Positions 8,715 through 51,112 of a stretch of DNA of 58,415 bases are shown piece after piece. Position numbers and translations under genes: made by a program. Source of the stretch: a virus (taxonomy: Duplodnaviria; Caudoviricetes); the IMG/VR virus record IMGVR_UViG_3300032236_000753, positions 1 through 58,415 of that record; one strand, written 5' to 3'. The first letter of the stretch is position 1, and the number at the start of each line of letters is the position of its first letter. Under the pieces are notes generated by a model, which was not told where the DNA came from, did not search any database, and saw only the letters and a program-made list of their open reading frames with translations.

Positions 8715-9389
8715 ATGCCGCTTTCCAAGGGTTCTTCGAAAAAAACAATCAGCCACAACATCTCGGAGATGATTCATGCTGGTCATCCCCAGGATCAAGC
8801 AGTTGCTGCGGCGTTGAACACTGCCCGCAAGGGACATGCTTTTGGTAGTCACGTTCCTGCGTTTATGAAAAAACCAGTTAGCGCAAAAGGGGAAATGAGC
8901 CATGCTCCAGCCGCGCCAGCCAAGCCAACGAGCCCCAAGATCCATGTTGGTCCGATCCACAGCGCAGTGGCGGGGCGCACGGATCATTTGCCAGTACATG
9001 TCCCATCAGGAGCCTATGTTATCCCTGCGGACATTGTATCGGCAATGGGCGAAGGCAACACGATGGCTGGCTTTAAAGTTTCGCGGCGCATCTTTGACGG
9101 AATGCCTTATGGCGGGGGAAAGCCACTATATGGCCAAGCAGGAATGCCGTATGGCGGCAATCTCGCTCGTGGTGGCCAGCCTCACGAATCGGGGGAAACG
9201 GTAATTAATGAGCCTGGAGTGGCTGTCATTGTTGCGGGTGGAGAGTATGTAATTCACCCAGATGATGTACGTAGATTAGCGGATGGTGACTTGGACGAGG
9301 GGCACCAAACTCTAGATCATTTTGTAACTAAAATGAGAGCTAGAACAGTTAAGACGTTGAAAAATCTGCCTGGGCCAAAGCGAGACTAA
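8715..9389 (+). CDS. Hypothetical virion-associated protein with two G[AE]YVI-x-x-D-x-V repeats and an LARGG motif
   Basis: Basic N-terminus ([16 protein letters not shown]); repeats [11 protein letters not shown] and [11 protein letters not shown]. Confidence 0.7.
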
Positions 9390-9399
9390 GGGGAACAAT

Positions 9400-9927
9400 A
9401 TGGGTCGCAGAGAAGTTATTATCCCTCGGAAGAAGGAAGAGTTGGTCATTCGACTGGGTACGCCGGATGATATTAATGAAGTAATGAATCTTGCATTGTC
9501 GGCGTGTGATGAAAATGGGTTTGTAGAGCCAAACCCGCATAAGCTTTACAATGAAATATGGCCAGCATTGAATAAAATTTACGGGATGGTCGCGCTTATT
9601 GGCAAGCCCGGTGGCCAAGCTGAAGGTGGCATCCTTTTAAGAGTCGGGGCCATGTGGTATTCTGACAGAATGGTTCTGGAGGAAAAGGCGGTTTTTATCC
9701 ACCCGGATTTTCGATCAGCTAGGGGTGGTCGTGCCAGTAAATTGTGCCGTTTTGCAAAAGAAGCCGCCGATATTTTGGATCTTCCTTTGATGATTGGCGT
9801 ACTGTCTAACCAGCGTACAGAAGCAAAGGTGCGCATGTATGAACGTGAATTTGGCAAGCCAAGCGGTGCTTTCTTCCTCTACAAAGCCAATACGGGACTT
9901 GGGAGCGGAGATGGGCAACTTAACTGA
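9400..9927 (+). CDS. GNAT-fold acyltransferase-like protein, copy 1
   Basis: IRLGTPDDI start and VFIHPDFRSARGG-RA acyl-CoA-binding-like motif; upstream of the ejection protein. Confidence 0.7.
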   Translation: MGRREVIIPRKKEELVIRLGTPDDINEVMNLALSACDENGFVEPNPHKLYNEIWPALNKIYGMVALIGKPGGQAEGGILLRVGAMWYSDRMVLEEKAVFIHPDFRSARGGRASKLCRFAKEAADILDLPLMIGVLSNQRTEAKVRMYEREFGKPSGAFFLYKANTGLGSGDGQLN

Positions 9928-10441
9928 GTATATAGGCAAACGTAAGAATGATATTTTTTCGATCCGTGCGGCAACAACGGATGATGTTTATGAAATCATG
10001 ACTTTGGCGGAAGAAGTCTATGGTGAAATGTGCATTGTCGCGCCGGATAAGGAAAAGATCCTGAACACGCTTTGGCCAGCTTTGCTTCAGGAAGATGGTG
10101 TGTGTTTTGTTGTTGTCGGACCCGATAGCAAAATTCAAGGCGGTGTGCTAATAAGAACAGGTGAGCTTTGGTTCTCCACAGAAAAGCTTTTGATCGAAAA
10201 CCTGTTATTTATCAGTAAGAAGTATCGAAATACGTCGAGCGGGTTGCTCCGGGCAAAGCTATTGTGCAATGCAGCAAAAAGACGATCAGATGAGTTAGGT
10301 ATGCCGCTCTGCATAGGGGTTTTTAGTACGGATCGTACTGAGAGCAAGATGCGGTTTTACGAGTCGCAGTTTGGTTCGAGTGTCGGCGGGTCGTTTTTGT
10401 ATGGAGCCAAATCTGGCCAATACAAAGTAGCGGAGAAGTAA
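9911..10441 (+). CDS. GNAT-fold acyltransferase-like protein, copy 2 (paralogue of 9400..9927)
   Basis: IRAATTDDV, WPAL, GGVLIR-x-G-x-x-WFS, LFISKKYR, IGVFS-x-x-RTESKMRFYE, FG...GGSFLY align with copy 1; start at ATG 9911. Confidence 0.7.
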   Translation: MGNLTEYIGKRKNDIFSIRAATTDDVYEIMTLAEEVYGEMCIVAPDKEKILNTLWPALLQEDGVCFVVVGPDSKIQGGVLIRTGELWFSTEKLLIENLLFISKKYRNTSSGLLRAKLLCNAAKRRSDELGMPLCIGVFSTDRTESKMRFYESQFGSSVGGSFLYGAKSGQYKVAEK

Positions 10442-10442
10442 T

Positions 10443-13400
10443 ATGTGTGGTGGCGGCGGAACTACTACATCCGTATCTTGCACTAAGCCACCTCCGTGTG
10501 TGCTTCAGGCTTATCAGAACGCCGTCGCCCGGATGAACGAGGCTGCAAATCAGCCTTTTGTTGCTTATGGTCAAACTCCCTGTGCTTATGTTGCCGGGCT
10601 TTCTTCTGCCCAAAAAGCTGGGATGCAGAATATCAATAGCTTGATGGGTTCTGCCACCAAGTGCGTTCAGGGTGGGCAAAATTATTTGATGCAGGGCGCA
10701 AACCAGGGAATTGGTTTGCAAAATCAATCTCTTTGCTTGGCCAACCAGGGGCTCGGTATGGCTTCTGGCATCAATTTGAATGCCTTGCAGGGGATTTGTG
10801 CGGCTAGAGCGCAGGGTCAACAGTATCTCGGTGGCGCTACTTGCTTGACAGCAAACGCAATTCGCACCGGCAACATGTACGCTGGGCAGGCGCAGCCTTT
10901 CTACACTGGTGCTTTGCAGGCTGCTGCTCCGATGACGGCTGCTTCTCAGCAGTTTATCGGTGCGGGAACTCAAAATCTTAACCCGACTGCGGTTCTTCCT
11001 GCGGTTAGCGCGTTTGAAAACCCCTATACACGCTGCGTGATTAACGCCACTCAGCGGGCTATGGCCCAGCAGAATGCGCAGCAGGCGTCAAATTTGCAAG
11101 GTTGCGCCATTATGAAGGGCGCTTACGGTGGATGCCGTGCGGGAATCGCGCAGGCTAATCTGGCATATCAGCAGAATTTGGCCAATCAGCAGACGCTGGC
11201 TAATCTGTATTGCAAAAACTATTCACAGGCTCTTGCTGCGGCGCAACAGCAGCAGGGTGTTTGCCTTGCAGCGCAGCAGGCTAATCGTGCAGCGCAGCAA
11301 TATGGTGCGCAGCAGGCGGCTGCTTTGGCTCAGCAGCAATATAATCAAGTTATGGGTGTTGGTACTGGCTTGGCGGCACTTGGCCAGCAGCAGTATGGCC
11401 AGAACCTCGGCACTGGCGCGCAGCTTAATACGCTTGGCAATACAGGATACAGCCAGGGTATCGGCGCGGCTCAGGCTCAGGCTGGCATTGGTCAAAACAT
11501 TTTTGGCAATGCCGCTCAGACTGCGGGTCTCTATCAGGGTGCTGGAAACAACATTGCCAATACGTCGCTGAATGCTGGCAATGCTTACGCCAATCTCGGT
11601 ATGCAGAATCAGCAGCTTCAGTTGGCCAATGCCAACGCGCAGATGCAGGCTGGTTTGGTTTGCCAGCAAACTGAACAGGCGAAGAAGACTGCTGGGTACA
11701 ACACATTTCAGCAGCAGCAGGGGTATCCCTTCCAGACGGCAAGTGCTGTTGCGAACACTGCTGAAGCCACTGGCGCGGCTTCTGGATCCACTTCTACGGG
11801 AACCTCGCATACCAGCAGTGGCTTTGCTGCGGGTGGCGCGGTTGGTCGTCCGAGTAAATATTACGGCGGCGGGTTAGGCGCTTCGAGCCAAGGTGGTGCA
11901 GTATTTAATCCGGGGGCATATGCTCGCGGCGGATATGATGCTGGCGGAACGCCGGGGCGTTCGTATTATCAAACATATACTGAAGATGGGTCAGAATATT
12001 GGGCGGATGATTCTGGTAACGCCGTTTCAAACGATGACCCCGGATTGCAAGCATTTATTGCAAATGGTCAGAAACCTGTGACTAGCACTGGGTCGTCTTT
12101 GCAGAACGAGCAACTCGTTAATAATGCTTATCAAGCAGTTTTTGGACATGCGCCGGATCCTGACGGTTTAAAAACTTGGACGAATGAATTAGCCAGCGGT
12201 CGCGTTACTCCGCAAACTTTGAACGATGTTCTTTTCAAAAACGCTCAAGGCACCGATGTTGAAGCAGCCAGAAGGGTGCAGCTTGAAAATCAAAAAAATG
12301 CCCAATACGAGGGTTTAATTAATAACGCATATGGCGGATTGGGGCGTTCTGGTATCGGTACTGCTGTCAATAACATTGATCAGGCGGGACATGATTATTG
12401 GTTGAATCAGCTTAAATCTGGCGCAATCACGCCAGATCAATTTCAAGCGCAGTTTGCTAAAGGCGCTGAAACTGCATTTGCCAATGATCCAAACAATCCC
12501 AGTGTTCAATACGCTAATGCGTATGCTTCATCGAACCCCAATGGCGGCATCAGAGGCACTCAATGCGCCAATACTGCATATTACAATATGCAGAAGTATG
12601 GCCCAATTGCGCCAACAACCAATGGTTTCAACCCCGCTGGGTTCAAGCCGGTTCTTTGCGGCGATGTGATTAAGTATCAATGCCCCAATAACCCCAGTGT
12701 TTCCTACACTTCGGCGCAACTTGCCTCGATGACTGGCGCCCCTCCGTGCATTACTGCACTGAAGGGTGGCGCAAACATGGTTTACAACCCGAATTTGTAT
12801 CAAAAGCCGGGATGCGCAACCACGAATCAGTATGGTTTTGCTAGTGGTAATGCTGCTGGCGTAGGTAATTTGCCAGCTAGTATGGCGAATGCGGCTTATC
12901 GCCCGACAAACACACAATGTGCGTTTCTGAGCGGTCTTGGAAATCTGTTTAATTCCTACCAGCCGCAGCAGCAGAACACTTATATGCCGAAGTTTAATTT
13001 TGGCAGTGCATGTACCGCGAATCCCATGGGTGCTGGCGCATATGGAGCATTACCTACTGCCAACTTAAAGGGTACGTCTTCCATGGCTGGCGGTTATTCG
13101 CCTTATGCCACCCAGCAATATACTCAGCAGCAGTATCAAGCTCCTGCTCAGCAGCAGTATCAGGCGTATGCCCCACAGCAGCCGATGTATAATGATTATT
13201 ATGGCTCGTATCAGCAGCCAAATTATGGGATGCGTTCGTCTGCCACCTATGGCCAGCCAAGCCCGGCTTACAATGCAACAGGTTATGGGCAACAGCCAAG
13301 TGGTGGCCCCATTGCGCTTGCAACTGAACAAGCGACTGGCACTTACAGCGGCGGCGCTTCTGGTCAATATTCTGGTAATTGGGCAGATGCGGCAAATACG

Positions 13401-16400
13401 CAGAATGCCCAGATGGCCACAACGGGGCAGACGGCGGTTCCCGGTGCTTCTGCGGCGAAGCCATTCGCAAATGGTGGTCGCGCTGGATTTGCTTTGGCTG
13501 GCGCAGTTGGTTGTGCGAGCCAGTTCGGGTGTGATCGTGCAGCGCGCATGGCGCTTGGCGCTATAAACCCCTATGCTGCTTCGCCTAACGCTGGTGGTGG
13601 ATATGCAGCGAATATTCCTGCGCAATATGTCAGCAGCAAGGGATTGCAGGGTGTCGCGCCTCCTACACCGCAGAAGAAGGCTTCTGGCTTAGCCACAGTT
13701 ATGCAAATGCCGCAGCAGGCTGCTGGCGCTATTGAAGGCGTCGAAAAGCTTGGTACGGCTGGCAAAGATGCTTACAAGTGGGCAACAGAACCAGCGAAAG
13801 CTCGTGGCGGGCGCATGGGATTCGCCACAACTGGCACTGTTCCCTGCTGCTGCAGTTATGTAACCAATCGCACTAATTTTGGCGACTATGGTTCGCAGCC
13901 TTATGGCGCTGCTGGCGCAACAGGAAGCCCGCAAGTTCCCAACAGCAAATCAGGCTACGTAATGCCCGGTTTGGCTCCGAATCCGTGGTCACATATTCAG
14001 CCTTTGAAGCCTGCATCACTTCCGGCTGCGCCGACGCCACAGAACCCGCTTAAAACTGCGGCTAACATGGCTGGACAAGCAAAAACGCTCGCCAGTTTGC
14101 CTAGTGACATTAGCAAAATGAAAACTGGGTTGGGCAATTTGTTTGGTGGTGCTTCGGATACTGGCGCGGCGTCTACTGCTGCTACTTCTGGTATGCCCGG
14201 TGCAATTGATCTTACAACGCCTGTTCCTGCTAACGCTGCTACGGGACTTGGCAGCGCGGGTGCTAATGCGGCATCTGCTGCAGCACCTGCTGTAGCGGAT
14301 ACCAGTCTGGCAGCGTCTAGTGCGATGCCTGCTGCGATTGATCTTACTTCTGGCGCGACGGGTCTTGGCGCTGCGGGTGGTGCGGCTGCTATCCCAGAGG
14401 CTGCTGGCAAAGGTGCTGCTGCGATACCTGAAGCGGCTGGTAAGGGCGCTATGCTGTTGTCCCGTGGCGGTGCTGCGCACTATGCCCATGGTGGATTTGT
14501 GCCGCGCACACGGTTCGCTGATGGTGGCCCCGAAGACGCGCCCGCCGCAGATCTCCCATCTGAAAACGCCAACGAGGCTATTGGAAATGGTCTTCCGCCT
14601 GGCGTAAGCGAAACTGAAGCTTTTGGGAAAAAAGAAAAACCACAACAATCAAGTAAAGATCTTGTCGAAGATTATTTGCAACGCACTATTAATCGCGAAA
14701 GTCGTGGCAATGAATTTGCTAAATCTACGACTTCAACGGCTGGTGGTCTTGGGCAAGTAATTAATTCGACTGCACGAAGCTGGCTGGATAAAAACAATGT
14801 TCCTTATGACCCAAATGCATCTCACATAGCAGCAACATTGCCCAAAGAAACGCAAATAGCGATGAACCGCGATTTAATTCGTGGCCATATCGATGCATTG
14901 CAAGGTCGTGGATTAGACCCTTCATACGGTAACGTAACTATGGCGCACTTCCTTGGTGATGCTGGTGGCCCGGCTTTTGTCAAAAATATGCTGGCAAATC
15001 CAGATGCGCCTGCAACATCATTTGTAACGCCACAAGCCGCTAGTAAGAATCAATCTATTTTCTTTAAGAATGGACAACCGCGCAGTGCCCAGGAAGTCTA
15101 TAATCTTATGGAAAAAGCTGGCCAGGGCGGCGGTGGTGGCAGCGCCATGTCTTACGCTCCGGTTCAGCGTATGGCTTCCGGGGCATCTGATGCAATCAAC
15201 AGCATCATGAGCGGTGGCAAAGAAGCTACTAATCAAATGATTAGCGGCGGGAAAGATATTGCTGGCGGCATTAGTGATGCTGCTAGTGGTGTTGGCGATT
15301 GGTTTACTCAGAATAAGTCTTGGATCTTGCCAATTCTGGCTGGTCTTGGCGCGGCTGGACAAGCTTCTGGTCAAGGTATGGGTCGCGGATCTTCGATCCT
15401 TTCTGGTCTTGGCGGTTTTGCCACCCAATATGGCAACATGGCGTATCAGCAGAGCCAGATCAATAAAAACAATATTGATCTGTTCAACCAGAACGTCATC
15501 ATGACCAGAGATGAGAACGGCGCTATTAAAGCCACTGACAAATTGGGTAGACCCCTTTCGCAGCAACAAGTTGAGCAACTGTGGTCTCAAGCAACTGGCA
15601 ATAATCCTGCTTTAAGAGCCATTGGTTCGCCAACACCGCCAGTTGTCCCGGCAAATGCTACACAAGAACAAATCGCTGCAACTAAGCCGCAGCAGAAAGA
15701 AACTTCTGCGGAAGCGGGGGCTCAAGCTGCTGCTCCTAAAACTGAACAGCCAGCCATAGGTGGCCAGCCAAAACAGCCATCCGCAACGGATCAGGCTGCT
15801 CAAACTGCTTTTGAGCCTGCACCCGGTGCGCTTAATCTTAATTCTGAATTGAGCAAATTGCGCCAAGTTGCGTTGACGCAAACTCAATGGCCTAGCGATC
15901 CCAATCAAAACCCTAATGCTCTGTTGCAGCAAGCTAATTCTGCACAGCAGGAAGCTGCTCGCTGGGAAAAGGTTTCTGGGAATAATGCGAATTACAACAA
16001 GGAGTATGCGGCAACTGCGCATCAGCAAGCTTTGGATTGGCAGAAAAAAGCCATGGATTACACGGAACAAGCTAATAAGCTTGTTGAACCCATCATCAGC
16101 GGCAACAAAGATTTCCTCGCCAAACGCGCTGATTCTTTGAATACAAGCGCGATGGGTTTTGATAAGGAAACGGGTGAAAGTTCTCTTAATTCTCAGCGCG
16201 ATATGCAAATGCAGGATCAGCTTGCTGAAGTTTTGAAAAATCACAAATTTGGTCCTGGCACTGAACTTTGGCAAGAAATTAACAAATACAAAAATCTTGT
16301 TCCTGGGTTAGATACGGTAGTAAATTATTTTTCGAACGGGGCCAATCAAGAATGGGCATCGGCTAGTCAAGATGCGCAGAAAAAAGCAGAAACTATGCTT

Positions 16401-16859
16401 GTCCAAGCGGTTTCGGCTATGGGTCTGCAACGCGCTCCAGCTTCATCTGCGCAACATCTTTCTAAGATTGTACCGGGGATCGAAGTTGAACCTGGTGCCG
16501 CATATGACATCATCACGAATCAACGTGCATATGATATGCAACAGCTTGATATGAACAAAGCGTGGAGAGAAGCGCGAACATCGCACGATAAAAATGGATA
16601 TATTCCCAACTCAGAATTGTGGAAACAAAATTGGGTGGAAAATAATCCAATTGAAAATTACAAGCATGCTGCGCATCTCGCGGTTCCCACACCAACTGGT
16701 ATGACGCCAAATGAAGTAAGGGAATATGGGCCTAAGATTAGTGACCCGAGCGAAATTCAAAAAATGCGCCCTGGAACGCAATTTATGTTTGCTTCTGGTC
16801 CTAACCAAGGTCGGATTGGGGTGATAACGTCGGATCGTAAAGCGGCTTTAGTGCCCTAG
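10443..16859 (+). CDS. Large DNA-ejection / internal virion protein (2138 aa) with Q/A/G-rich helical N-terminus, two DUF4214-like repeats and a lytic-transglycosylase-like domain
   Basis: MCGGGG start; AYQAVFGHAPDPDGLKTW and AYGGLGR...DQAGHDYWLNQL repeats; INRESRG...AKSTTSTAGGLGQ...AHFLG lysozyme-like motif; late hydrophobic segments. Confidence 0.8.
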   Translation: MCGGGGTTTSVSCTKPPPCVLQAYQNAVARMNEAANQPFVAYGQTPCAYVAGLSSAQKAGMQNINSLMGSATKCVQGGQNYLMQGANQGIGLQNQSLCLANQGLGMASGINLNALQGICAARAQGQQYLGGATCLTANAIRTGNMYAGQAQPFYTGALQAAAPMTAASQQFIGAGTQNLNPTAVLPAVSAFENPYTRCVINATQRAMAQQNAQQASNLQGCAIMKGAYGGCRAGIAQANLAYQQNLANQQTLANLYCKNYSQALAAAQQQQGVCLAAQQANRAAQQYGAQQAAALAQQQYNQVMGVGTGLAALGQQQYGQNLGTGAQLNTLGNTGYSQGIGAAQAQAGIGQNIFGNAAQTAGLYQGAGNNIANTSLNAGNAYANLGMQNQQLQLANANAQMQAGLVCQQTEQAKKTAGYNTFQQQQGYPFQTASAVANTAEATGAASGSTSTGTSHTSSGFAAGGAVGRPSKYYGGGLGASSQGGAVFNPGAYARGGYDAGGTPGRSYYQTYTEDGSEYWADDSGNAVSNDDPGLQAFIANGQKPVTSTGSSLQNEQLVNNAYQAVFGHAPDPDGLKTWTNELASGRVTPQTLNDVLFKNAQGTDVEAARRVQLENQKNAQYEGLINNAYGGLGRSGIGTAVNNIDQAGHDYWLNQLKSGAITPDQFQAQFAKGAETAFANDPNNPSVQYANAYASSNPNGGIRGTQCANTAYYNMQKYGPIAPTTNGFNPAGFKPVLCGDVIKYQCPNNPSVSYTSAQLASMTGAPPCITALKGGANMVYNPNLYQKPGCATTNQYGFASGNAAGVGNLPASMANAAYRPTNTQCAFLSGLGNLFNSYQPQQQNTYMPKFNFGSACTANPMGAGAYGALPTANLKGTSSMAGGYSPYATQQYTQQQYQAPAQQQYQAYAPQQPMYNDYYGSYQQPNYGMRSSATYGQPSPAYNATGYGQQPSGGPIALATEQATGTYSGGASGQYSGNWADAANTQNAQMATTGQTAVPGASAAKPFANGGRAGFALAGAVGCASQFGCDRAARMALGAINPYAASPNAGGGYAANIPAQYVSSKGLQGVAPPTPQKKASGLATVMQMPQQAAGAIEGVEKLGTAGKDAYKWATEPAKARGGRMGFATTGTVPCCCSYVTNRTNFGDYGSQPYGAAGATGSPQVPNSKSGYVMPGLAPNPWSHIQPLKPASLPAAPTPQNPLKTAANMAGQAKTLASLPSDISKMKTGLGNLFGGASDTGAASTAATSGMPGAIDLTTPVPANAATGLGSAGANAASAAAPAVADTSLAASSAMPAAIDLTSGATGLGAAGGAAAIPEAAGKGAAAIPEAAGKGAMLLSRGGAAHYAHGGFVPRTRFADGGPEDAPAADLPSENANEAIGNGLPPGVSETEAFGKKEKPQQSSKDLVEDYLQRTINRESRGNEFAKSTTSTAGGLGQVINSTARSWLDKNNVPYDPNASHIAATLPKETQIAMNRDLIRGHIDALQGRGLDPSYGNVTMAHFLGDAGGPAFVKNMLANPDAPATSFVTPQAASKNQSIFFKNGQPRSAQEVYNLMEKAGQGGGGGSAMSYAPVQRMASGASDAINSIMSGGKEATNQMISGGKDIAGGISDAASGVGDWFTQNKSWILPILAGLGAAGQASGQGMGRGSSILSGLGGFATQYGNMAYQQSQINKNNIDLFNQNVIMTRDENGAIKATDKLGRPLSQQQVEQLWSQATGNNPALRAIGSPTPPVVPANATQEQIAATKPQQKETSAEAGAQAAAPKTEQPAIGGQPKQPSATDQAAQTAFEPAPGALNLNSELSKLRQVALTQTQWPSDPNQNPNALLQQANSAQQEAARWEKVSGNNANYNKEYAATAHQQALDWQKKAMDYTEQANKLVEPIISGNKDFLAKRADSLNTSAMGFDKETGESSLNSQRDMQMQDQLAEVLKNHKFGPGTELWQEINKYKNLVPGLDTVVNYFSNGANQEWASASQDAQKKAETMLVQAVSAMGLQRAPASSAQHLSKIVPGIEVEPGAAYDIITNQRAYDMQQLDMNKAWREARTSHDKNGYIPNSELWKQNWVENNPIENYKHAAHLAVPTPTGMTPNEVREYGPKISDPSEIQKMRPGTQFMFASGPNQGRIGVITSDRKAALVP

Positions 16860-16869
16860 GAGTTTGGTC

Positions 16870-39601: not shown

Positions 39602-39850
39602 ATGGAACCAGATAAGTTTATTAGGTTGACCGCCAGTTGCGAACCAACTGAAACTGGGCTATGGGATGTTGAAATTGAAAATGTTGATGACCCCCAGATG
39701 AGGGTACACTATACTATTCGAGCAAAAACTGATAATTTAGCGGTTCAGCACGGGATGAAGCAGTTTACCGACAGCATCAGACGTGGGTCGCCGGACAGTG
39801 GTAAGGTTAAGGAAATATTGAATGCCACTTACCCCAGGATTGTCTCCTAG
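39602..39850 (+). CDS. Hypothetical protein
   Basis: GAGG RBS; between terL and portal. Confidence 0.55.
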   Translation: MEPDKFIRLTASCEPTETGLWDVEIENVDDPQMRVHYTIRAKTDNLAVQHGMKQFTDSIRRGSPDSGKVKEILNATYPRIVS

Positions 39851-42125
39851 CATCCGACAGCCAGACACGTCTGGTTTGGGCGCTCTTCTGTCGTCGGAAG
39901 CGCCCATGGTCGATATAGTGGTCGATGAAGCAGGCGTAACACCTGATGAACCTTCAAAAGAATCCAAGAAAATATTATCAATTGAGCATGAAGACGGTTC
40001 TATAACAATTTCTCTAGATGGCAAATCACTGACTGACGATGACACTGACACAAATCCACCTGACTGGTTTGATAACCTTGCTGATCGTCTTCCTGACGGT
40101 GAACTAAACCGCATTAGCTCGGATCTTTTGCGCGGAATCGATGACGATCTTGAAAGCCGCAACGAGTGGATGGAAACTCGTGCGCTTGGCATTAAGCTTT
40201 TAGGGCTTAAAGTTGAAGTTCCTGGCTTGCAGGGAGCATCTGACGGCGCTCCTGTGGAAGGTATGTCCAAGGTCCGCCATCCGTTGTTGTTGGAAGCTGT
40301 GCTGCGCTTCCAAGCTAATGCGCGTTCAGAACTTTTGCCCACCGATGGCCCAGCCAAAATCCGCAATGACGATAATAACTCGACATTAGAAGAAGATCAG
40401 CTTGCAGATGCGTTTGAAGTTGATCTGAATCATTACCTGACAGCAACAGCAACTGAGTATTATCCTGATACGGATCGTATGCTGTTAATGCTTGGTTTTG
40501 GCGGCACTGCTTTTAAAAAAGTATATATGTGCCCGCTGCGCAATCGCCCTGTGTCTGAAACGGTGGATGCAAACGATCTGATCGTCAACAACGCCGCAAC
40601 GGATCTTGAGAATGCAAAAAGGATTACGCATCGTTCTTTTATGCGCCCATCGACGCTTAAAAGGCTGCAAATCCTCGGTGTTTATCGCGATGTAGATCTT
40701 TCAACGCCGCACGAAGCTAAACTTGACAGTGTTCGGCGCGAAAAAAACGATCAGCAAGGCATTTCCTCGCAATCTCGTAATCCAGAAGATCGGGATAGAG
40801 AAATATACGAGTGTTATTGCGAATTGGATTTGCCTGGGTTTGAACATAAATGGAAAGGCAAGCAATCTGGTTTGGAAATTCCATATCGAGTGACGATTGA
40901 CGTGTCTTCCAAAAAGATTTTGTCGATTGTTCGCAATTACGATGAAGATACCGAAGATCTTCCTGTTTCACGGGAAACATTTATCAAATACACATTTGTT
41001 CCCGGTATGGGATTTTACGATATTGGCCTAGTTCACATACTTGGCAATACCACAAACGCGATTACGGCTGCTTGGCGTGAGATGCTTGACGCCGGTATGT
41101 ACGCAAATTTCCCCGGCTTCTTGATGGCGGACACCGGAGCAAGGCAAAATACTAATATCTTCCGTGTTCCTCCTGGTGGCGGCGCGTTAGTAAAGACAAA
41201 TGGTATGTCGATTAAGGAAGCGATTATGCCGCTTCCTTATAAAGAGCCATCTAGCGCGTTAATGACGCTTGTGAACGACATGGCGCAGACTGGAATGCGC
41301 ATTGGTGGCACATCTGAGCAGCAAGTTGGCGAAGGTAAGACGGAAATGCCCGTCGGCACTACGCTTGCGATGATGGATCAAGCTGCAAAAGTTATGAACA
41401 GCGTTCATAAGCGGCTTTGCTCGGCGCAAGCCAAAGAACTTCAGCTTATCGCCAAGGTGTTTAAGGAGAATCCTGAAGCATTTTGGCAGCGCAACCGCGC
41501 TCCGGCTACTCAGTGGGATGAGGAAAAGTTCCTGAAGGCGCTTAAGGACTTTGATTTGGTGCCGCAAGCTGATCCTAATACTGCCAGCCATGGCCAGCGG
41601 TTAATGAAAATCAGTGGGTTGAAGCAGCTTCAGTCTACATCGCCCAACATGTACGATGCGTACAAGGTAGATGCGGCTGCGCTTCAGGCGCTTGGCTGGT
41701 CTAACCCGCAGCAATTCATGAAGCATCCTGACGACATGAAGAAGCCTTCGCCGCAGGATCAGGCGTTGCAGGCTAAGGCTCAGGCTGAAAAGACAGTTGC
41801 TGACGCCCGCATGATGGATAGCCAGACTCGCGCCAAGGAAGGCGATGCAAAGATCAAGCATCAATCGCATAGAGAGACTGTAAGCAATGTGAAGACGCAG
41901 ATGGAACTTTCAAAGGTTCAAATGAAAGATTCCACTGACAAGCAGATTGCTTTGATGGATCAGCAGAAGGCTTTGCTTGAGCTTGCCAGGGATATTGCCA
42001 AAAATCCTGAAAGCGCAGTGCAGTTGCAGCCTTTGATTCAGCCTGCCGTTGATCAAATGCAGCGTGATCAAGCTGCTTTAGGAACTCAACCGCCTATGCC
42101 CCCTAAACCGCCTGGAGTCGCGTGA
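39822..42125 (+). CDS. Portal protein
   Basis: 767 aa after terL; HPLLLEAVLRFQA, GFGGTAFKKVY, FVPG-x-GFY and PVGTTLA motifs; C-terminal coiled coil. Confidence 0.85.
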   Translation: MPLTPGLSPSIRQPDTSGLGALLSSEAPMVDIVVDEAGVTPDEPSKESKKILSIEHEDGSITISLDGKSLTDDDTDTNPPDWFDNLADRLPDGELNRISSDLLRGIDDDLESRNEWMETRALGIKLLGLKVEVPGLQGASDGAPVEGMSKVRHPLLLEAVLRFQANARSELLPTDGPAKIRNDDNNSTLEEDQLADAFEVDLNHYLTATATEYYPDTDRMLLMLGFGGTAFKKVYMCPLRNRPVSETVDANDLIVNNAATDLENAKRITHRSFMRPSTLKRLQILGVYRDVDLSTPHEAKLDSVRREKNDQQGISSQSRNPEDRDREIYECYCELDLPGFEHKWKGKQSGLEIPYRVTIDVSSKKILSIVRNYDEDTEDLPVSRETFIKYTFVPGMGFYDIGLVHILGNTTNAITAAWREMLDAGMYANFPGFLMADTGARQNTNIFRVPPGGGALVKTNGMSIKEAIMPLPYKEPSSALMTLVNDMAQTGMRIGGTSEQQVGEGKTEMPVGTTLAMMDQAAKVMNSVHKRLCSAQAKELQLIAKVFKENPEAFWQRNRAPATQWDEEKFLKALKDFDLVPQADPNTASHGQRLMKISGLKQLQSTSPNMYDAYKVDAAALQALGWSNPQQFMKHPDDMKKPSPQDQALQAKAQAEKTVADARMMDSQTRAKEGDAKIKHQSHRETVSNVKTQMELSKVQMKDSTDKQIALMDQQKALLELARDIAKNPESAVQLQPLIQPAVDQMQRDQAALGTQPPMPPKPPGVA

Positions 42126-43108
42126 TGTCACCGGAAGAAATTCTTGCTCTCTTTACGCCCCAGCGCCGAATCAATCCCAATACGGGTGTTGCTGTTCCCA
42201 AGCGCGGACCTTCTGGGCGCATGGAAGCGGATTTTGGGGTTCCTGGCGCTGTAGACCCTTATGAAGCTCTTGCGGCAGAAGCAAAACGCATCTTGGCGGA
42301 AAGGGCGCAACAGGCTGGCAGTGCTGTAGCTTATCCGTTTATGCCTAATACATGGAATGGCAGACAAGTTCGTGGGCCTAGGGGCCAATGGGGCGAAAAA
42401 ATTATGGAATATTCGCCTACGCAAAAGGCTGCGGCTGGCGCGCTTGGCACTGGTATGCTTGTTGGCACGGGCGTTGGCCTTGATGATTATCTGCATCAAC
42501 CTCCTGCGGCAGTTGCTGCTCCTGCGCCCGCTCCGTTTCCTTCAAATGTTGATCGGATGCCGCAGGGTTATACGCCGCCGTCATCTTTGCCCAGTTATAT
42601 GATGGCTGATACTGTTCCGCAGGGATATGTGCCCCCTTCTTCATTAGATAGCAAATTGTTGGCTGATGTGGTCCCGCAAGGATATACGCCTCCTGCTGCG
42701 TTAGATATTGGGCAATCTTCTCGTTCTGCGCCTACCACTTTACAACACGCTCCCGCTCGCCCCGCACCAATGCCACCAACTCGTCCTGCTGAATTGGCGC
42801 GTGAACAGCCAAGTATTTTGTCACGGATTTTTTCTGGTCAAGATTACCAGTCTAACAATGAACTGGTAAACAAACCTACGGGTGGCGCGCCGGTTAACTG
42901 GGGCAATTCTGACAATGCGGCGGATTTTTTCCGTGCATCCAAGGCTTTGCAGCAAGCTCGCCCTGAAATGTTCCAACAGGGTTCAGATGATAGTGGTCAT
43001 GCTCGGGGTGGCACGGTTGGCCAGCAAGGTAAAGGCGCCAGTGGCAACAATGCCGCATTGCACAAAGCGTTAGAAATTATTCATCACATGCTAATGCAGA
43101 GGCATTGA
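42122..43108 (+). CDS. Pro-rich putative internal head protein with 3x PQGY-x-PP repeats
   Basis: Three 19-aa-period repeats; C-terminal HARGG followed by LHKALEII. Confidence 0.65.
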   Translation: MMSPEEILALFTPQRRINPNTGVAVPKRGPSGRMEADFGVPGAVDPYEALAAEAKRILAERAQQAGSAVAYPFMPNTWNGRQVRGPRGQWGEKIMEYSPTQKAAAGALGTGMLVGTGVGLDDYLHQPPAAVAAPAPAPFPSNVDRMPQGYTPPSSLPSYMMADTVPQGYVPPSSLDSKLLADVVPQGYTPPAALDIGQSSRSAPTTLQHAPARPAPMPPTRPAELAREQPSILSRIFSGQDYQSNNELVNKPTGGAPVNWGNSDNAADFFRASKALQQARPEMFQQGSDDSGHARGGTVGQQGKGASGNNAALHKALEIIHHMLMQRH

Positions 43109-44424
43109 TGCACGATCAGCATATTTCCACTGCTTTGGAGTTAATTCGCCATCATTATGAAGGTGGCGGGAAAACCCCTATGCTTTTGGAGGATCCGGCT
43201 GGTTGGTTTGCACGCAAGGGCCAACAAATTGCGGATTTGCCAAGCAATGCGGCGGAAGCATGGGAAAACTATCGGAACAATCCGGTTGTTGCTGCGTTTA
43301 GAGAGCAACCGGCTACAATGATACCCGGTGCAGCAAAAATTTTTGGGGGGTGGGCGGCGGAACACCCATTTGCGGCTGCACGAAAAATTGCTGGCACGTA
43401 TGCGGATTTTACGGGGAATCCCACAGTTGCGGTTCCTAATGCTTTTTTATCTTCTAGCCCATTAAATGAAGGCGAAGATGAAATAGCTAGGCAGATAGAA
43501 TATGGTATTCGCCCAGAAAGCGATTATCCCGGCAAAGAACGGTATACAATGCCCGATAATTTTGCCCGTGGTGGAGAAGTGCGCGAGCATCATGCTAGTG
43601 GAAATCGCGTTTTAGGCGCAATAATTTCTGGCGCAGAACGTGGCGGCGGAAATGAATTAACAAATTTTGCAAAACAAATTTTAAAACAATCACCAGAAAG
43701 TAATTTATATCAGGAAATTTTGCAAAATCGTGGAGTTGATGCGGCGCGTCGAGTTCAGCGCGCAGCGGATGAAATCCCCAATCTTGGAAGCATGTATACT
43801 CCTAATGCGCTTAGAGAAGCGTTTACTGGTATGAATGGAGATGAAAGTCTTTTGATGGCTATGAAACCTTCTGATTTTGGTAAATTTGCTGCGCCAATAG
43901 AAGACGATTTGAAAAATTGGAAAGCTGGAAGCCCTGAAGCATGGGATCGATATGTAAACGAACTTTCAAAAGTTCCTCAATCAGGCGGGTTTTCGGAAGT
44001 TCCATATCTTATTTATGGAGAACCAGATAATGTTCCTGCTATTGTTGGGCATGAAGGTCGCCACAGATCGTTGGCTTTAGAGCAAATGGATGCCCCTAGT
44101 TCTTTAGTTCGCCTTCAACCTAGTTTTATAGTTAAAGATGCAATAACATCGCCAATTTTGGAGAAAAATCCATATTGGAGACCCTATCAAGATGAAAAAT
44201 TAAAAATGCAATTTCAACAACGATTACCAGAAGATCTAAAAGTGGTGCCAGAAACTAAAAGTTTAGATGATTCTCAAAAACTTCAATTGCCAGAACCCTT
44301 TGCGGGTGGCGGGCACGTTGACTCAACTGAAAGTTACATTAAACATATATTAAATCGGCTTGGCATCACGCCGCAGGATGCTTTGGATGTGTTGAAGCGG
44401 CATTACGGGGGACGCCCCGAGTAA
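43108..44424 (+). CDS. Putative internal head protein containing a ParB/sulfiredoxin-like domain
   Basis: PYL...IVGHEGRHRSLAL motif lies between FARGG and FAGGG. Confidence 0.6.
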   Translation: MHDQHISTALELIRHHYEGGGKTPMLLEDPAGWFARKGQQIADLPSNAAEAWENYRNNPVVAAFREQPATMIPGAAKIFGGWAAEHPFAAARKIAGTYADFTGNPTVAVPNAFLSSSPLNEGEDEIARQIEYGIRPESDYPGKERYTMPDNFARGGEVREHHASGNRVLGAIISGAERGGGNELTNFAKQILKQSPESNLYQEILQNRGVDAARRVQRAADEIPNLGSMYTPNALREAFTGMNGDESLLMAMKPSDFGKFAAPIEDDLKNWKAGSPEAWDRYVNELSKVPQSGGFSEVPYLIYGEPDNVPAIVGHEGRHRSLALEQMDAPSSLVRLQPSFIVKDAITSPILEKNPYWRPYQDEKLKMQFQQRLPEDLKVVPETKSLDDSQKLQLPEPFAGGGHVDSTESYIKHILNRLGITPQDALDVLKRHYGGRPE

Positions 44425-44443: not shown

Positions 44444-45484
44444 ATGAACGAGATGGCCAAAGCTGCGCGAGCGGCTATGAAGAAGAAAGCCTCTCTTATG
44501 GGTGGCAAAGGAGAGCCTCACCAGAAGGTTGATGCTTCTTCTTGGACACCCCCTGAGATGCTGAATGCTGGTTCCAAAACTGGCATGCGCCCGGTTTCCA
44601 AGCGCCAGTATAAAGCTGGCGGCAAGGTTCATGGCGAAGACTGCGGCGAGAATATGGGGCGTAAGCCTCGTAAATCTGGCGGTCGCACACTGGCTCATAA
44701 CATGGCCATTGCCAAAATGAACCGTAACCAGCGGGATGCAAACGAAGAACGCGACGGTTTCAAGCACATTGGCGGCTTGAAGCATGGTGGCAAGGCGCAC
44801 CGCAAGCACAAGGACATGGGTGGCCCCATGATGGGTGGGATCCCGCCTGTTGGCTCCGCTCCCGGCGCTGCCCTGAGCCCCAATTCTGCGCCTAATGCTC
44901 CCGGCACGATCCCCGGTTCGCAGGCTAAGTTTATGGCAAACCAGAGCCCTATGGGCGGTATGATCCGGCTGAAGCGTGGTGGCAAAGCTGAAGATCATCC
45001 TGATGTCGCGGAAGATAAGGCGTTGATCCGCAAGATGGTCAAGCCGTCTGCCCGTACTGGCAAGAAGCATGGCGGCTCGCCTGTAGCCAGCGGTGAATAT
45101 CAGGGTACTCGTCCCACGGGCGGGCGTATTGCTCGTGCCAGTGGTGGCAGCGCCAAGGGCAAGAAAACCAACATCAATATTACCATTGATGCTGGTGGTA
45201 AGCCTGCTGGTGCTGGTGGCCCCCCGATGGGCGCTCCAATGCCGCCGCCTCCCACACCTATGGCTCCTCCTCCGGGCGCTGGAGCCCCGCCTCCTGGTAT
45301 CCCCCCTATGGGCCCGCCTCCGGGTATGCCAATGGGTGGCCCTCCCGGTATGCCCCCTGGCGCTCCTCCTATGATGCGCAAGCGTGGTGGCCGCACTAAC
45401 GCTGGTTTCCCGGATATGGATGCCGGAGCCGGTGGCGGGCTTGGCCGTCTTGAGAAGATTAAAGCCTACGGTAAGCAGGCTTAA
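44444..45484 (+). CDS. Basic Gly/Pro/Lys-rich protein with 8-9 xKxGG-type motifs
   Basis: YKAGG, RKSGG, LKHGG, KDMGG, LKRGG, KKHGG, RASGG, RKRGG; AGGAG RBS. Confidence 0.75.
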   Translation: MNEMAKAARAAMKKKASLMGGKGEPHQKVDASSWTPPEMLNAGSKTGMRPVSKRQYKAGGKVHGEDCGENMGRKPRKSGGRTLAHNMAIAKMNRNQRDANEERDGFKHIGGLKHGGKAHRKHKDMGGPMMGGIPPVGSAPGAALSPNSAPNAPGTIPGSQAKFMANQSPMGGMIRLKRGGKAEDHPDVAEDKALIRKMVKPSARTGKKHGGSPVASGEYQGTRPTGGRIARASGGSAKGKKTNINITIDAGGKPAGAGGPPMGAPMPPPPTPMAPPPGAGAPPPGIPPMGPPPGMPMGGPPGMPPGAPPMMRKRGGRTNAGFPDMDAGAGGGLGRLEKIKAYGKQA

Positions 45485-45808: not shown

Positions 45809-46201
45809 ATGCCGTACATGGAAATGACTCACGACGTAGATCCTGTCAAGCAAATGCTTGACGAAGTTGGCGATTTGTCAGGTTTTGATATTTTAAACAA
45901 TCATGTGTTGCTTGGCATTTACATTCGCCCGGTAAGAACCAAAGGCGGCATTATGCTGACGGACAATTATAGAGACGAAGACAAGTGGCAGGGAAAGGTT
46001 GGTTTGGTTCTTAAGAAAGGGCCTACTGCTTTCATCGACAAAACTGGTGAATGGTTTGATGGGATCACCATCAATGAACATGACTGGCTTGTAACTCGCC
46101 CATCTGATGGGTTCCTCATCACGATTAGAAATGTGTTTTGCAAGCTTGTTGTAGATACAAGCACCAAGATGCGTATTTCTCGTCCTGATGAAATTTGGTG
46201 A
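45809..46201 (+). CDS. groES: GroES-like co-chaperonin
   Basis: NHVLL...RTKGGIML...GLVLKKGP mobile-loop motif. Confidence 0.8.
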   Translation: MPYMEMTHDVDPVKQMLDEVGDLSGFDILNNHVLLGIYIRPVRTKGGIMLTDNYRDEDKWQGKVGLVLKKGPTAFIDKTGEWFDGITINEHDWLVTRPSDGFLITIRNVFCKLVVDTSTKMRISRPDEIW

Positions 46202-47138: not shown

Positions 47139-47140
47139 CC

Positions 47141-48532: not shown

Positions 48533-49447
48533 ATGGCTGTCAATCTCTCGGCTATTAAGGATCTGCTCCTGCCTGGCCTTCGTGGAATCGAAGGCAAGTA
48601 CGAGATGATCCCGAGTCAGTACGACAAGATCTTCACCAAGCACGATTCGAAGATGGCTCTCGAACGTACTGCTGAAATGCGCTTCCTTGGGTATGCGCAG
48701 CTTAAGCAGGAAGGCGGGCAGACTGCTTTCGATAACGGCGCTGGTGAGCGTTACGTCTACAACCAGGAACACACTGAGATCGGTCTCGGTTATTCGATCA
48801 CCCGCAAGGCGATTGACGACAACCTCTACAAGACTCAGTTTCATCCTTCCAATCTGGGCCTCATTGAGTCGTTCCAGCAGACGAAGGAGATCTACGGCGC
48901 GTCGATCCTGAACAACGCCACCACCTACAACAACGCTGTTGGCGGTGACGGTGTTGCGCTTTGCTCGGCTTCGCATCCGATTGATGGTGGCACGGTCGCC
49001 AACACCCCCACCATCCAGGTTGACCTCAACGAGGCGACCCTGCTGAACGCGATGATTGCCATCCGCACGAACTTCAAGGACCAGGCTGGTCTGAAGGTGT
49101 TCGCTCGTGGCCGCAAGCTGATCGTTCCGCCGCAGCTTGAGCCTGTCGCGATTCGTCTTACCAAGACTGAACTGCGCCCTGGCACAGCGGACAATGATGT
49201 CAACGCAATCCTCACCACGGCTGGCGGGCTTTCCGAAGGCTACATGGTGAACGACTTCTTGACTTCATCGTATGCTTGGTTCTTGCTGACCAACATCGAC
49301 GGTTTGTCGTATATGGAGCGAGTGAAGTTTGAAACCGATATGCAGGTGGATTTCGTAACCGATAACCTTCTGGTTAAGGGCTACGAGCGTTACAGCTTCG
49401 GTTACTACAACTGGCGTTCGATCTACGGCAGCTTCCCGACTTCGTAA
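48533..49447 (+). CDS. Major capsid protein (HK97 fold, Mu gpT-like family)
   Basis: LLLPGL, GGDGVALCSASHP, LIVPPQL and ERYSFGYYNWR motifs; strongly biased codon usage. Confidence 0.85.
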   Translation: MAVNLSAIKDLLLPGLRGIEGKYEMIPSQYDKIFTKHDSKMALERTAEMRFLGYAQLKQEGGQTAFDNGAGERYVYNQEHTEIGLGYSITRKAIDDNLYKTQFHPSNLGLIESFQQTKEIYGASILNNATTYNNAVGGDGVALCSASHPIDGGTVANTPTIQVDLNEATLLNAMIAIRTNFKDQAGLKVFARGRKLIVPPQLEPVAIRLTKTELRPGTADNDVNAILTTAGGLSEGYMVNDFLTSSYAWFLLTNIDGLSYMERVKFETDMQVDFVTDNLLVKGYERYSFGYYNWRSIYGSFPTS

Positions 49448-49464
49448 CCGTAGGAGAAGGCACG

Positions 49465-50658
49465 ATGTCTAATACAGCTTTCTCTGGTCCGTTGATGGTG
49501 TTTGGGCAGAACCCTTACAACCCCAACGAATACAACCCGGACATCGGCGGCATGTCGATGTTCTACGCTGGCGCGGGCATTATGGACCCGCGCACGGCTT
49601 ACACTTACCTGCCAGGCGAAGCTCAGTCTGCGCCTGACTATGGGTGGCTTGGGTTTGACAACATCACAACAATCAATGCGGTTCCTTACACCAAGGCTGC
49701 TGGTGCGATTGTTGCGTCTGCCAACGCTACTTCTGCGACTCTGACGCTTGTCTCTGCTTCTTCGGCTACGACTGGCGTCTACATCACAAGCAGCATGGTC
49801 CGTGCCGATACTGGTGCGGTTGATGCTGGTCCGCTGGTGGCTCTTGATGCTTATACCTCTGTGACGGCTTCGTTCTCGAACGGTGTGATGACGATCACCG
49901 CGAACAGCGCGATGCCTGTTGCTCCGGGTATGGTTGTGATTTCAACCACGGGTACTGTTTCGCAGGGCACTGCGGCTGGTACGCAGGTTGTAAATCAGCT
50001 TACGGCTGGCACGGGTGGCCAGGGTGTTGCTGGTACTTACCAGACTAACGGTAACCTGACGGCTACTTCTGGCACGGTGGTTCTCGCCATCCAGACGCCT
50101 GGGCAGTGCATTGTTCCTAACAATGCTTCTACCCCGAGCGATGTCGCCTGGAATGCCATGACCTTGTACGGGCGCGCTGTTGCGGTTACTGCCGCTGCCA
50201 GCGCCACTGCTACAACGGCTACGGTGAACGGTTATGATTGCTATGGTTTCCCGATGACGGAAAACATCACTCTCACTGCCGGTTCTCAGGTGTCTGGCAA
50301 GAAGGCGTTTAAGTACATCAAGTCTGTCGTTCTCAATGCGGCGGATGCGACCCATGCTTATTCGGTTGATACCACGGACATTTTCGGGCTTCCGATCCGC
50401 TCGGACAGCTTCGGCGATGTTCTTGTCAACTACGCTTCGTCGTTGACTGGTGTCACGCTGATCACCGCAGCCACCAACTACGTCGCCAGTGACCGTACTG
50501 CGGCCTCTGCGACTACAGGCGATGTCCGGGGCACCTTTGGTGCATTCACGTCTTCCACGGGCGCGAACAAGCTGGTCATTCGTCAGTCTCCGCAGGCGTA
50601 CATGACCACCACGGCTAACCCTGGTCTGTACGGCGTCACCCAGTACTCTGGCTTCTAA
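49465..50658 (+). CDS. Virion structural protein
   Basis: MSNTAFSGP start; T/A/G-rich beta protein; GKKAFKYI motif. Confidence 0.7.
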   Translation: MSNTAFSGPLMVFGQNPYNPNEYNPDIGGMSMFYAGAGIMDPRTAYTYLPGEAQSAPDYGWLGFDNITTINAVPYTKAAGAIVASANATSATLTLVSASSATTGVYITSSMVRADTGAVDAGPLVALDAYTSVTASFSNGVMTITANSAMPVAPGMVVISTTGTVSQGTAAGTQVVNQLTAGTGGQGVAGTYQTNGNLTATSGTVVLAIQTPGQCIVPNNASTPSDVAWNAMTLYGRAVAVTAAASATATTATVNGYDCYGFPMTENITLTAGSQVSGKKAFKYIKSVVLNAADATHAYSVDTTDIFGLPIRSDSFGDVLVNYASSLTGVTLITAATNYVASDRTAASATTGDVRGTFGAFTSSTGANKLVIRQSPQAYMTTTANPGLYGVTQYSGF

Positions 50659-50668
50659 GGAGTAGACC

Positions 50669-51112
50669 ATGAAGGGTCATAAGGCACATCATCACCGCAA
50701 GCATCATGCTAAGGGCGGTTCCGCGCATGAGGACACTGGCACTGAAAAGGGCCATTGGGAAGAGTCTGCTGAAACCGGCACGGATGAGGCGGATCAGGAT
50801 CTTAATCGCAAGAACATGGACTACACTGCTCACAGCAATGTGACGGGTGAGGCCGAGAAGCGCAAGCGTGGCGGTCGTACTGCTCGCAAGCACGGCGGTC
50901 ATGTCCATCACGAGGCTGGCAAGCACATGGCTCACGCCAAGCATCTTGGCAATGTCCATGGCGAGCATGGCGGTCATCATGCTGGTCGCAAGCCTCGCAA
51001 GGCTGGCGGTCGCGCTGGTGCAGACATGCATCCTTTCTCCTCTGCCATGCACGGGTCGCTTCCCAAGGGCCGCAAGGTCGAGAAGATGACTATGGGCGGC
51101 GACAAGGAATAA
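50669..51112 (+). CDS. His/Lys/Gly-rich protein with four xxxGG motifs
   Basis: 22 His in 147 aa; HAKGG, RKRGG, RKHGG, RKAGG. Confidence 0.75.
   Translation: MKGHKAHHHRKHHAKGGSAHEDTGTEKGHWEESAETGTDEADQDLNRKNMDYTAHSNVTGEAEKRKRGGRTARKHGGHVHHEAGKHMAHAKHLGNVHGEHGGHHAGRKPRKAGGRAGADMHPFSSAMHGSLPKGRKVEKMTMGGDKE

Follow-up and report, generated by a model that had tools for sequence, protein, structure and literature searches.

A recurrent Gly-Gly motif and terminal helices in ejection and post-portal proteins of an uncultured podovirus: a possible joint-and-anchor code

Why seven otherwise unrelated proteins of a single phage should share a short peptide ending in Gly-Gly, and several of them a short helix at one end of the chain, is the question raised by IMG/VR virus record IMGVR_UViG_3300032236_000753. 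The whole stretch of DNA analysed, referred to as the window (58,415 nucleotides, 58.4 kb), is a complete virus record with direct terminal repeats and belongs to a podovirus with an SU10-type portal and adaptors. An earlier note on this DNA had drawn attention to the peptide and the helix. The two elements may together form a 'joint-and-anchor' code for virion-borne, ejected proteins, a reading that we hold with about as much confidence as doubt, and the proteins that bear the motif are most likely carried in the particle and ejected with the DNA in this podovirus clade. The seven proteins, each named after the first position of its gene, are as follows.

8715..9389, + strand: 8715-family protein of the ejection module, matching phrog_2423 over residues 1-40
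10443..16859, + strand: giant internal virion protein of 2138 residues, with three motif clusters (nucleotides 11823-11948, 13464-13811 and 14457-14528)
16864..19512, + strand: ejection protein of 882 residues, with a C-terminal module at nucleotides 19324-19509
42122..43108, + strand: post-portal protein of 328 residues, with a C-terminal module of HARGG (42998-43012) followed by LHKALEIIHH (43058-43087)
43105..44424, + strand: post-portal protein of 439 residues, with helices at both ends and GG motifs flanking a central GHEGRHR domain
44444..45484, + strand: basic Gly/Pro-rich protein of 346 residues, with 8 motif copies at nucleotides 44609-45391, mostly of the form [RK]-K-x-G-G-[RK]
50669..51112, + strand: basic His-rich protein of 147 residues, with 4 motif copies at nucleotides 50705-51010

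The motif in the window, its relatives and its protein families

The pattern of the earlier note, [FYHRKL][AKDS]xGG, was kept unchanged for all counts in the window and in its relatives. Each pentapeptide that had been listed was found in its place; the claim of more than 25 copies in seven proteins holds for the individual instances and not for the total, since YYGGG and YEGGG fall outside the pattern itself and the strict count in the seven proteins is therefore 25. Over 392 GG contexts, the residue two positions before the first Gly is Ala in 27% and Lys in 16%, Val or Ile is preferred 3.0-fold at position +2, and the refined consensus is [F/Y/H/R/K/L]-[A/K]-x-G-G-x-[V/I/A], with copies that are often doubled at a spacing of eight residues. 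The motif is a feature of the proteins and not a DNA repeat, because synonymous codons differ among the copies. The description of the seven proteins as otherwise unrelated was borne out by BLASTP, in which no pair gave E<0.2.

The motif is enriched beyond what composition predicts. Whole-protein shuffles of all 72 open reading frames (ORFs) of the window gave 10.8 expected copies, compared with 27 observed. When shuffling was confined to 30-residue blocks, which preserves local composition, the seven proteins gave 25 copies against 4.3 expected, with none of 500 shuffles reaching 25, and the remaining 65 ORFs gave 2 against 6.5. The two most Gly-rich proteins (293 and 53812, both tail-fibre-like) contain no copy. 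Taken singly, with whole-protein shuffles, only 10443 (8 observed, 1.7 expected), 44444 (8 and 0.8), 50669 (4 and 0.45) and 43105 (2 and 0.24) are significant; 8715, 16864 and 42122 have one copy apiece (p 0.17-0.43), and their support is conservation.

Cross-validation was carried out with per-protein shuffles on the uncultured MW202675, which is the closest deposited relative (portal identity 63.5%), and five complete IMG/VR relatives; the portals of these six genomes are 62-67% identical to that of the window (39822..42125).

Post-portal proteins without a BLAST match in the window (n=8): 34 observed, 6.7 expected
Homologues of 44444/50669 (n=5): 43 observed, 4.4 expected
Homologues of 8715/10443/16864 (n=17): 40 observed, 13.5 expected
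All other ORFs of the six relatives (n=402): 49 observed, 51.6 expected

The first class consists of non-homologous proteins, and local-shuffle controls in the relatives gave a concordant result. Among 80 IMG/VR loci collected through the 8715 family, the observed and expected counts were 151 and 22.1 for the 8715 family, 166 and 61.7 for the 10443 family and 34 and 15.2 for the 16864 family; the adjacent tail proteins of the same loci were not enriched (28 and 30.3, 1 and 8.4, 3 and 7.3). The enrichment in the window and in the relatives, together with its absence from the control ORFs, supports the proposal that the motif is a conserved functional signal specific to head and ejection proteins. 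A frequency no higher than Gly-rich composition predicts, combined with a lack of conservation in homologues, had been named beforehand as the outcome that would speak against such a signal, and the opposite was found on both counts. A literature search on polyvalent proteins, tape measure cleavage sites and virion processing returned no paper naming the motif.

Conservation within the families follows the motif closely. The 8715 protein is built, in order, of an N-terminal helix-hairpin domain (VAAALNTA, nucleotides 8802-8825), a degenerate first AxGG (HAFGS), LARGG (9162-9176) and two 'G-x-YVIP-x-D' hairpin motifs, repeats of the form 'G-x-YVIP-x-D..G-[DE]-G'. Its family has at least 2994 homologues; A151, G153 and G154 of LARGG do not vary in a set of 21 sequences, and in a set of 99 sequences G154 is invariant and A151 and G153 are conserved in at least 90%. 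In most homologues a second A-x-G-G, degenerate in the window, stands straight after the N-terminal helix, and in two members (P0039 and P0109) the stretch between the two A-x-G-G motifs has taken up foreign domains, namely an ART-PolyVal domain and a ParB-like segment. The C-terminal module of 16864 begins with RKAGG (19342-19356) and continues with a helix-loop-helix ending in VVKALKIAQAHI (19474-19509); the GG of RKAGG, the Ala-Leu of KAL and A58 are invariant in 27 of 27 sequences (alignment A4), and the usual form in the family is the doublet xxGGRIxRASGGRV. At E<=1e-3 a profile of this 62-residue module matched 1552 representative proteins; each of the 150 matches listed stops within three residues of the protein C-terminus. 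In 43105 the order is ISTALELI (43123-43146), YEGGG (43156), FARGG (43561), the GHEGRHR domain, FAGGG (44299) and QDALDVL (44374-44394) with YGG. Its central domain recurs in proteins with ART-PolyVal, PF18838, ASCH or SLT domains and is flanked by GG motifs in many architectures; G401 and G402 of the terminal 'YAxGGxV' are invariant in 62 sequences of many architectures. For 42122, 120 homologues were listed; every one has a GG among its final 50 residues and a helix of the HKALEIIHH type among its final 30, and in most of them the alignment covers the C-terminal third of the query only. The four 44444 homologues (in G001 and G003-G005) contain 10 copies apiece, and the 50669 homologue in G004 contains three.

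The three clusters of 10443 comprise FAAGG, YYGGG, YARGG and YDAGG (11823-11948), FANGG and KARGG (13464-13811), and LSRGG, YAHGG and FADGG (14457-14528), giving eight strict motifs against 1.68 expected. Library matches of this protein are DUF4214 and phrog_3201 (residues 1416-1882); beyond these and the phrog_2423 match of 8715, none of the seven proteins received an informative name from Pfam, PHROGs or NCBIfam. For 16864 no Pfam match was found in the local library, and a locus search seeded with 16864 alone found no relative. Its Atlas lead, by feature similarity and not by alignment, lies at rank 29 (score 0.93), with Phage_P22_gp16 (PF26808) in 63% of the cluster members. Profiles of the 8715 and 43105 families gave nothing meaningful against PDB sequences, and 8715 also lacks a Pfam match.

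Further observations concern two of these families. For a phage protein, the 8715 family shows unusual conservation (55-60% identity over thousands of metagenomic sequences), with H82, S83, R88, T89, D90 and H91 invariant, and could be the receptor of the motif or an enzyme acting on it. Its 40-residue N-terminal domain (phrog_2423; Atlas neighbour DUF6496) also heads gp26 of Burkholderia phage BcepB1A, a Nudix and protease/scaffold polyprotein, and occurs alone as basic proteins of 48-52 residues in Pseudomonas phage O4 and in phiCbK. The idea that the C-terminal module of 42122 sits on unrelated N-terminal bodies was dropped, as single-linkage BLAST joined 118 of 120 bodies. A 419-residue homologue of this module (P0401) is not encoded in the window, where tblastn matched the 42122 C-terminus only, and probably belongs to a different phage.

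Placement at domain borders and terminal helices

The motif is placed at domain borders, as had been proposed. The post-portal proteins of the relatives are 605-2212 residues long, and four of the seven scanned match Pfam ART-PolyVal, PcfJ, Peptidase_M15, GNAT or InPase. These four annotated polyvalent proteins contain 21 strict motifs, of which nine lie within 30 residues outside a domain edge, a zone that makes up 7.4% of the length (binomial p=9e-6), and one lies within a domain. The 739-residue protein of MW202675 reads GG51, GNAT (64-121), GG217, M15 (294-386), GG412, GG555, ART (569-721) and GG735. In 10443 the first cluster starts seven residues beyond the N-terminal block shared with homologues (residues 1-454), and the third cluster lies about 50 residues ahead of the stretch matching phrog_3201.

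The helices that had been described in the window (VVKALKIA, LHKALEII, ISTALELI, QDALDVL and VAAALNTA) are all present, and their supposed likeness to one another is not significant. A hidden Markov model (HMM) of the 8715 N-terminal domain, run against the window proteome, matched the 43105 N-terminus marginally (E=0.05) and left the 16864 and 42122 helices unmatched, and HMMs from the N-termini of the relatives and from the 16864-family C-termini ranked the 8715 helix first and third, respectively (E=0.04 and 0.87). Alignment of the 16864 C-terminal module with the 8715 N-terminal domain by hhalign (P=0.002, 14% probability) is suggestive only. The coupling of the motif to a terminal amphipathic helix is supported in the relatives, in which the helix is confined to protein ends. 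The first post-portal protein of five relatives starts with M-x-DPKAIxKALxxAK, and the giant proteins of the relatives end in ...GG..xALxhh+. With the pattern 'xALxhh+', written post hoc after these sequences had been viewed, eight of nine matches in the eight post-portal proteins of the relatives fall no more than 25 residues from a protein end, a zone that accounts for 4.6% of the length (p=1.7e-10), and the density is 1.03 per 1000 residues compared with 0.09 in the 402 other ORFs, an eleven-fold difference. In the window, this post hoc pattern matches 42122, 43105 and 16864 three times in all, always at a terminus, and the other 65 ORFs once. Three relatives (G002-G004) have a single giant polyvalent gene (1557-2212 residues) with a helix at each end, whereas the window has in its place two short genes that both bear terminal helices of their own, an arrangement that fits the connectors as places of gene splitting and fusion.

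Gene order and neighbouring genes

The head module has a conserved order of terminase, portal, variable zone, GroES-like gene, scaffold (46212 in the window), two small proteins and capsid protein (48533), and 42122, 43105 and 44444 lie between the two genes that delimit its variable zone.

39822..42125, + strand: portal protein (PF23899 SU10_portal, E=2.5e-21), at the upstream edge of the variable 'cargo' zone
45809..46201, + strand: GroES-like protein (phrog_3188, E=0.0026), at the downstream edge of the cargo zone, where the scaffold and capsid genes start
51160-51417, + strand: stand-alone DUF6321 protein of 85 residues (PF19846, E=3.6e-14)

Further-off relatives are Pelagibacter phage HTVC027P, Roseobacter phage CRP-902 and Caulobacter phage RW, which, like MW202675, have syntenic 'co-chaperonin GroES' genes. 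The GroES-like gene separates the cargo zone from the scaffold gene and is kept in every relative examined; in many phages this slot is taken by a prohead protease gene. In CRP-902 (L005, 7550-12801), four different proteins of the portal-to-GroES zone start with almost identical peptides (MANPVKGAxGxLG...), which look like a lineage-specific N-terminal tag replacing the Gly-Gly/helix code.

In the second, ejection module a P22 gp10-like 'stabilisation' protein and 8715 are followed by GNAT acetyltransferases (one or two), by the giant protein 10443 and then by 16864. In the window two GNAT-like acetyltransferase paralogues (9400-9927 and 9794-10441, both + strand) lie between 8715 and 10443; a homologue of 9400 is present in 77 of 80 related loci, and the acetyltransferase is thus a fixed member of the module. 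Elsewhere, a 66-residue early protein (36375-36575, + strand; ORF assigned by reading the sequences) matches the KGG stress-protein repeat (PF10685, E=3.4e-6). As a GcrA-like gene is also encoded, members of this clade probably infect alphaproteobacteria. The DUF6321 protein holds SPSGG, PEGG and INLALKKW and matches the C-terminal 80 or so residues of eight PHROG families with lengths of 99-928 positions; it may be a further modular C-terminal unit of phage proteins.

Cleavage, docking and comparison with known systems

Focusing on phage proteins that are processed near Gly-Gly, three precedents were compared. For T5 pb2, PMC10038345 reports a cut after R1127, established by mass spectrometry, and a trimeric helix in the hub formed by the last 35 residues. 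In the T5 sequence this cut reads FVPR|AEGGMMYPG...GEHGTEVVTP and lies within an x-A-x-G-G motif, before the Ala; a literature search for pb2 together with a prohead protease found nothing. For P22 gp7, PMC8402733 describes the loss of 20 residues through host OpdA, with a mature protein beginning Lys-Gly-Gly-Lys-Gly, and the RefSeq note and sequence place the cut at E20|KGGKGG, just before Gly-Gly. For lambda gpH, the Ur-lambda paper (PMC12617516) gives a cut in a Gly-rich region at an unknown site and by an unknown catalyst, docking of residues 818-849 as a trimer on gpI and no resolved structure for residues ~690-817. The gpH sequence contains KFHFATGGF..., PAGIVHRGEFVF, RGYATGGYV and a terminal helix, and its processed Gly-rich C-terminal region does hold FAxGG-like motifs (FATGG and YATGG), as the earlier note had stated. 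All three of these proteins, ejected or located in the tail lumen, thus undergo processing at or next to a Gly-Gly, and for none of them is a phage protease known to do it. By analogy with pb2 and gp7, any cut in the present proteins would be expected one or two residues ahead of Gly-Gly.

In the joint-and-anchor reading, the motif would punctuate the ejection module (8715, 10443 and 16864), the variable post-portal cargo or polyvalent proteins (42122, 43105 and the giants of the relatives) and the basic internal proteins (44444 and 50669). The short amphipathic helix (x-A-L-x-h-h-+) that begins or ends the chain would be the anchor, serving as a docking handle either on the procapsid interior or in the portal/tail exit channel, as the C-terminal helices of tape measure proteins do in the tail hub; loading of cargo into the prohead and docking in the exit channel are equally open. 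The joint would be the A-x-G-G beside the helix and at every domain border, an exposed place where the chain may be cut or at least bends. The cutter would be a host or yet unidentified enzyme, or the protein itself, and not a phage protease of GG|X specificity. The data establish the enrichment and conservation of the motif, its limitation to these classes of protein, its position at domain borders and the terminal placement of the helix; virion location, docking and cleavage are inferred.

The earlier note had instead proposed that an unidentified phage protease cuts after Gly-Gly, with the helix loading the prohead and 10443 being a polyprotein, which now appears improbable. Bracketing of domains by the motif does resemble polyprotein sites, 44444 and 50669 would yield short basic peptides, presumably similar to adenovirus or T4 internal peptides, and the 8715 family, with its extreme conservation and invariant His, Ser, Asp and Arg, could in principle be an enzyme. 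However, the note's own observation that no prohead protease is recognisable was upheld by Pfam and PHROG scans and targeted searches: the full Pfam and PHROG tables of 20 structural proteins contain no peptidase, the other 51 ORFs have none among the best 25 of 29 Pfam and the best 25 of 67 PHROG families, a prohead protease (S77, S78, S49 or ClpP-like) was not found and PF04586 (S78) is absent. JAB (PF14464) and NlpC/P60 (PF00877), as in the tail-assembly peptidases of lambda gpK type, and the clan CE peptidase family PF02902 (C48) gave no match at E<=1 (PF00770 was not searched separately). The claim of a phage GG-specific protease is not supported: no peptidase of the clan CE, JAB or NlpC/P60 type was found in these searches, and both mapped precedents are cut before Gly-Gly, one of them by a host enzyme. 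The adenain consensus, (M/I/L)-x-G-G|x, does not fit either, as A or K stands where M, I or L is required. Somewhat less doubtful, and still unlikely in our view, is an uncleaved structural joint, in which Gly-Gly forms a turn or hinge between short strands for compact storage, channel threading or refolding and the helices only oligomerise. The doublets eight residues apart (GGRIxRASGGRV and GGRVGFAQGG), with V or I at +2, suggest such a strand-turn-strand element, the motif belongs to conserved domain ends (Y-A-x-G-G-x-V), and the failure to find a protease is in keeping with it; yet a pure hinge needs neither a conserved Ala or Lys at -2 nor an aromatic or basic residue at -3, and in T5 pb2 a closely similar sequence is a real cleavage site.

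Two narrower explanations fare worse. That the [RK]-K-x-G-G-[RK] repeats of 44444 and 50669 are DNA-binding or charge-neutralising head-protein repeats, functionally apart from FAxGG, is very improbable; the copies are embedded in Lys/Arg/His-rich sequence and the motif is the sole BLAST similarity between these two proteins, but the core A/K-x-G-G-R/K-V/A grades into copies in neutral or acidic context, such as RKAGGRV (16864) and KRGGRVGFAQGG (a relative), and the 44444 gene lies within the same post-portal cargo zone in five relatives. That the motif is a by-product of Gly-rich composition or of post hoc pattern choice is scarcely credible. The pattern is loose and was defined after inspection, and in three of the seven proteins the only copy fails to reach significance by itself; this artefact was nevertheless tested and not upheld, as local-composition shuffles never reach the observed count, the most Gly-rich proteins have no copy, enrichment of the pattern as originally written recurs in independent, non-homologous proteins from other genomes while the 402 control ORFs show none, and GG is invariant across the 8715, 16864 and 43105 families.

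Several points weigh against the joint-and-anchor reading itself. No peptidase was found in the genome by the scans described above. The counts in the relatives are not phylogenetically independent, and 11 of the 21 motifs of the border test lie in stretches without Pfam annotation, where borders are not defined. The code weakens with distance: the cargo zone of HTVC027P has 7 copies against 2.05 expected (3 of 500 shuffles reach 7), and the code is not shared by the distant relatives CRP-902, with 2 against 1.4, and RW, with none in a tiny cargo zone and 7 against 2.5 elsewhere. The five window helices are alike only loosely, with mutual HMM similarity of E 0.04-4, at which homology is not demonstrable, and a strict helix pattern built on the window sequences only carries over weakly to the relatives (3/30 compared with 3/402, p=0.005, two of the three matches being orthologues). 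As for the precedents, the 8715-family HMM gave no hit to lambda gpH or T5 pb2 at E<=10, the Pfam lambda tape-measure C-terminal family spans gpH residues 627-701, outside the motif region, and P22 gp7, gp20 and gp16 have neither a strict-pattern motif nor a matching terminal helix, the gp7 cut site fitting loosely.

Among known systems, the T4 internal proteins carry an N-terminal-only capsid-targeting tag that is cut at L/I-x-E by the prohead protease gp21. They are similar to the present proteins in that internal head proteins with nothing else in common carry the same kind of short terminal peptide near a processing site, and differ in that a phage prohead protease cuts the tag, none such having been found in the window. 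The adenovirus protease and ASFV pS273R act at Gly-Gly|X sites in virion precursors, including basic core proteins; here no clan CE peptidase was found, the flanking consensus differs and the mapped phage precedents cut before Gly-Gly. The P22 ejection proteins gp7, gp20 and gp16 are likewise ejected with the DNA, gp7 being cut beside KGGKGG by host OpdA, and the likeness of gp16 to 16864 is a lead from feature similarity and not from alignment. The genes for polyvalent proteins (Iyer et al. 2017, PMC5512222) adjoin the portal gene, and 42122 and 43105 correspondingly stand directly after it, with position-equivalent post-portal genes in six relatives. Unlike polyvalent proteins, 42122 (328 residues) and 43105 (439 residues) are short split proteins without a Pfam family, a hallmark domain (ART-PolyVal, LPDs and others) or multiple effector domains; such domains are found in four of the seven scanned proteins of the relatives and in homologues of the 43105 domain. 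The main text of PMC5512222 contains neither 'glycine' nor 'linker', and the punctuating motif and terminal helix seem to be undescribed there. One polyvalent protein, phi24B gp47, is abundant in virions according to a preprint.

The closest likeness is to the C-termini of tape measure proteins (RAEGG in T5; FATGG and YATGG in lambda), in which x-A-x-G-G is followed by a hairpin-like 'GE[YFH]..V' stretch and then by a terminal docking helix; the motif followed by a terminal helix recurs in the present proteins in a motif-level sequence comparison. Tape measure proteins leave the virion through the tail and are cut at (T5) or near (lambda) the motif, with no protease known. In contrast, the present phage is a podovirus without a tape measure, and the motif occurs many times per protein and in many proteins. 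The link is confined to the motif level; the HMM and Pfam comparisons show no homology, and at E<=5 no tape-measure family of Pfam matched 8715, 42122, 43105 or the C-terminus of 16864. If the joint-and-anchor reading is correct, it would provide a sequence rule for recognizing proteins carried in the particle and injected in uncultured phages, anti-defence effectors included, and for locating the boundaries of their functional units, and the terminal helix with its joint could become a portable tag for loading foreign proteins into laboratory phage capsids. It also ties in with the old open problem, treated in PMC12617516, of where and how the lambda and T5 tape measures are cut with no protease known. 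More speculatively, and with a low probability in our estimate, one x|A-x-G-G joint code may be common to siphovirus tape measures and to the polyvalent, cargo and ejection proteins of podoviruses, marking the place where a conserved host oligopeptidase, or self-cleavage set off by assembly, cuts them on their way through the tail, with the helix as a universal exit-channel handle. It would offer a way to identify injected effectors in uncultured phages and to release them. Such a shared code would also explain the cut in lambda gpH and predicts that it lies before Ala734 of FATGG, giving a fragment of 12.5 kDa, compared with the ~14 kDa reported.

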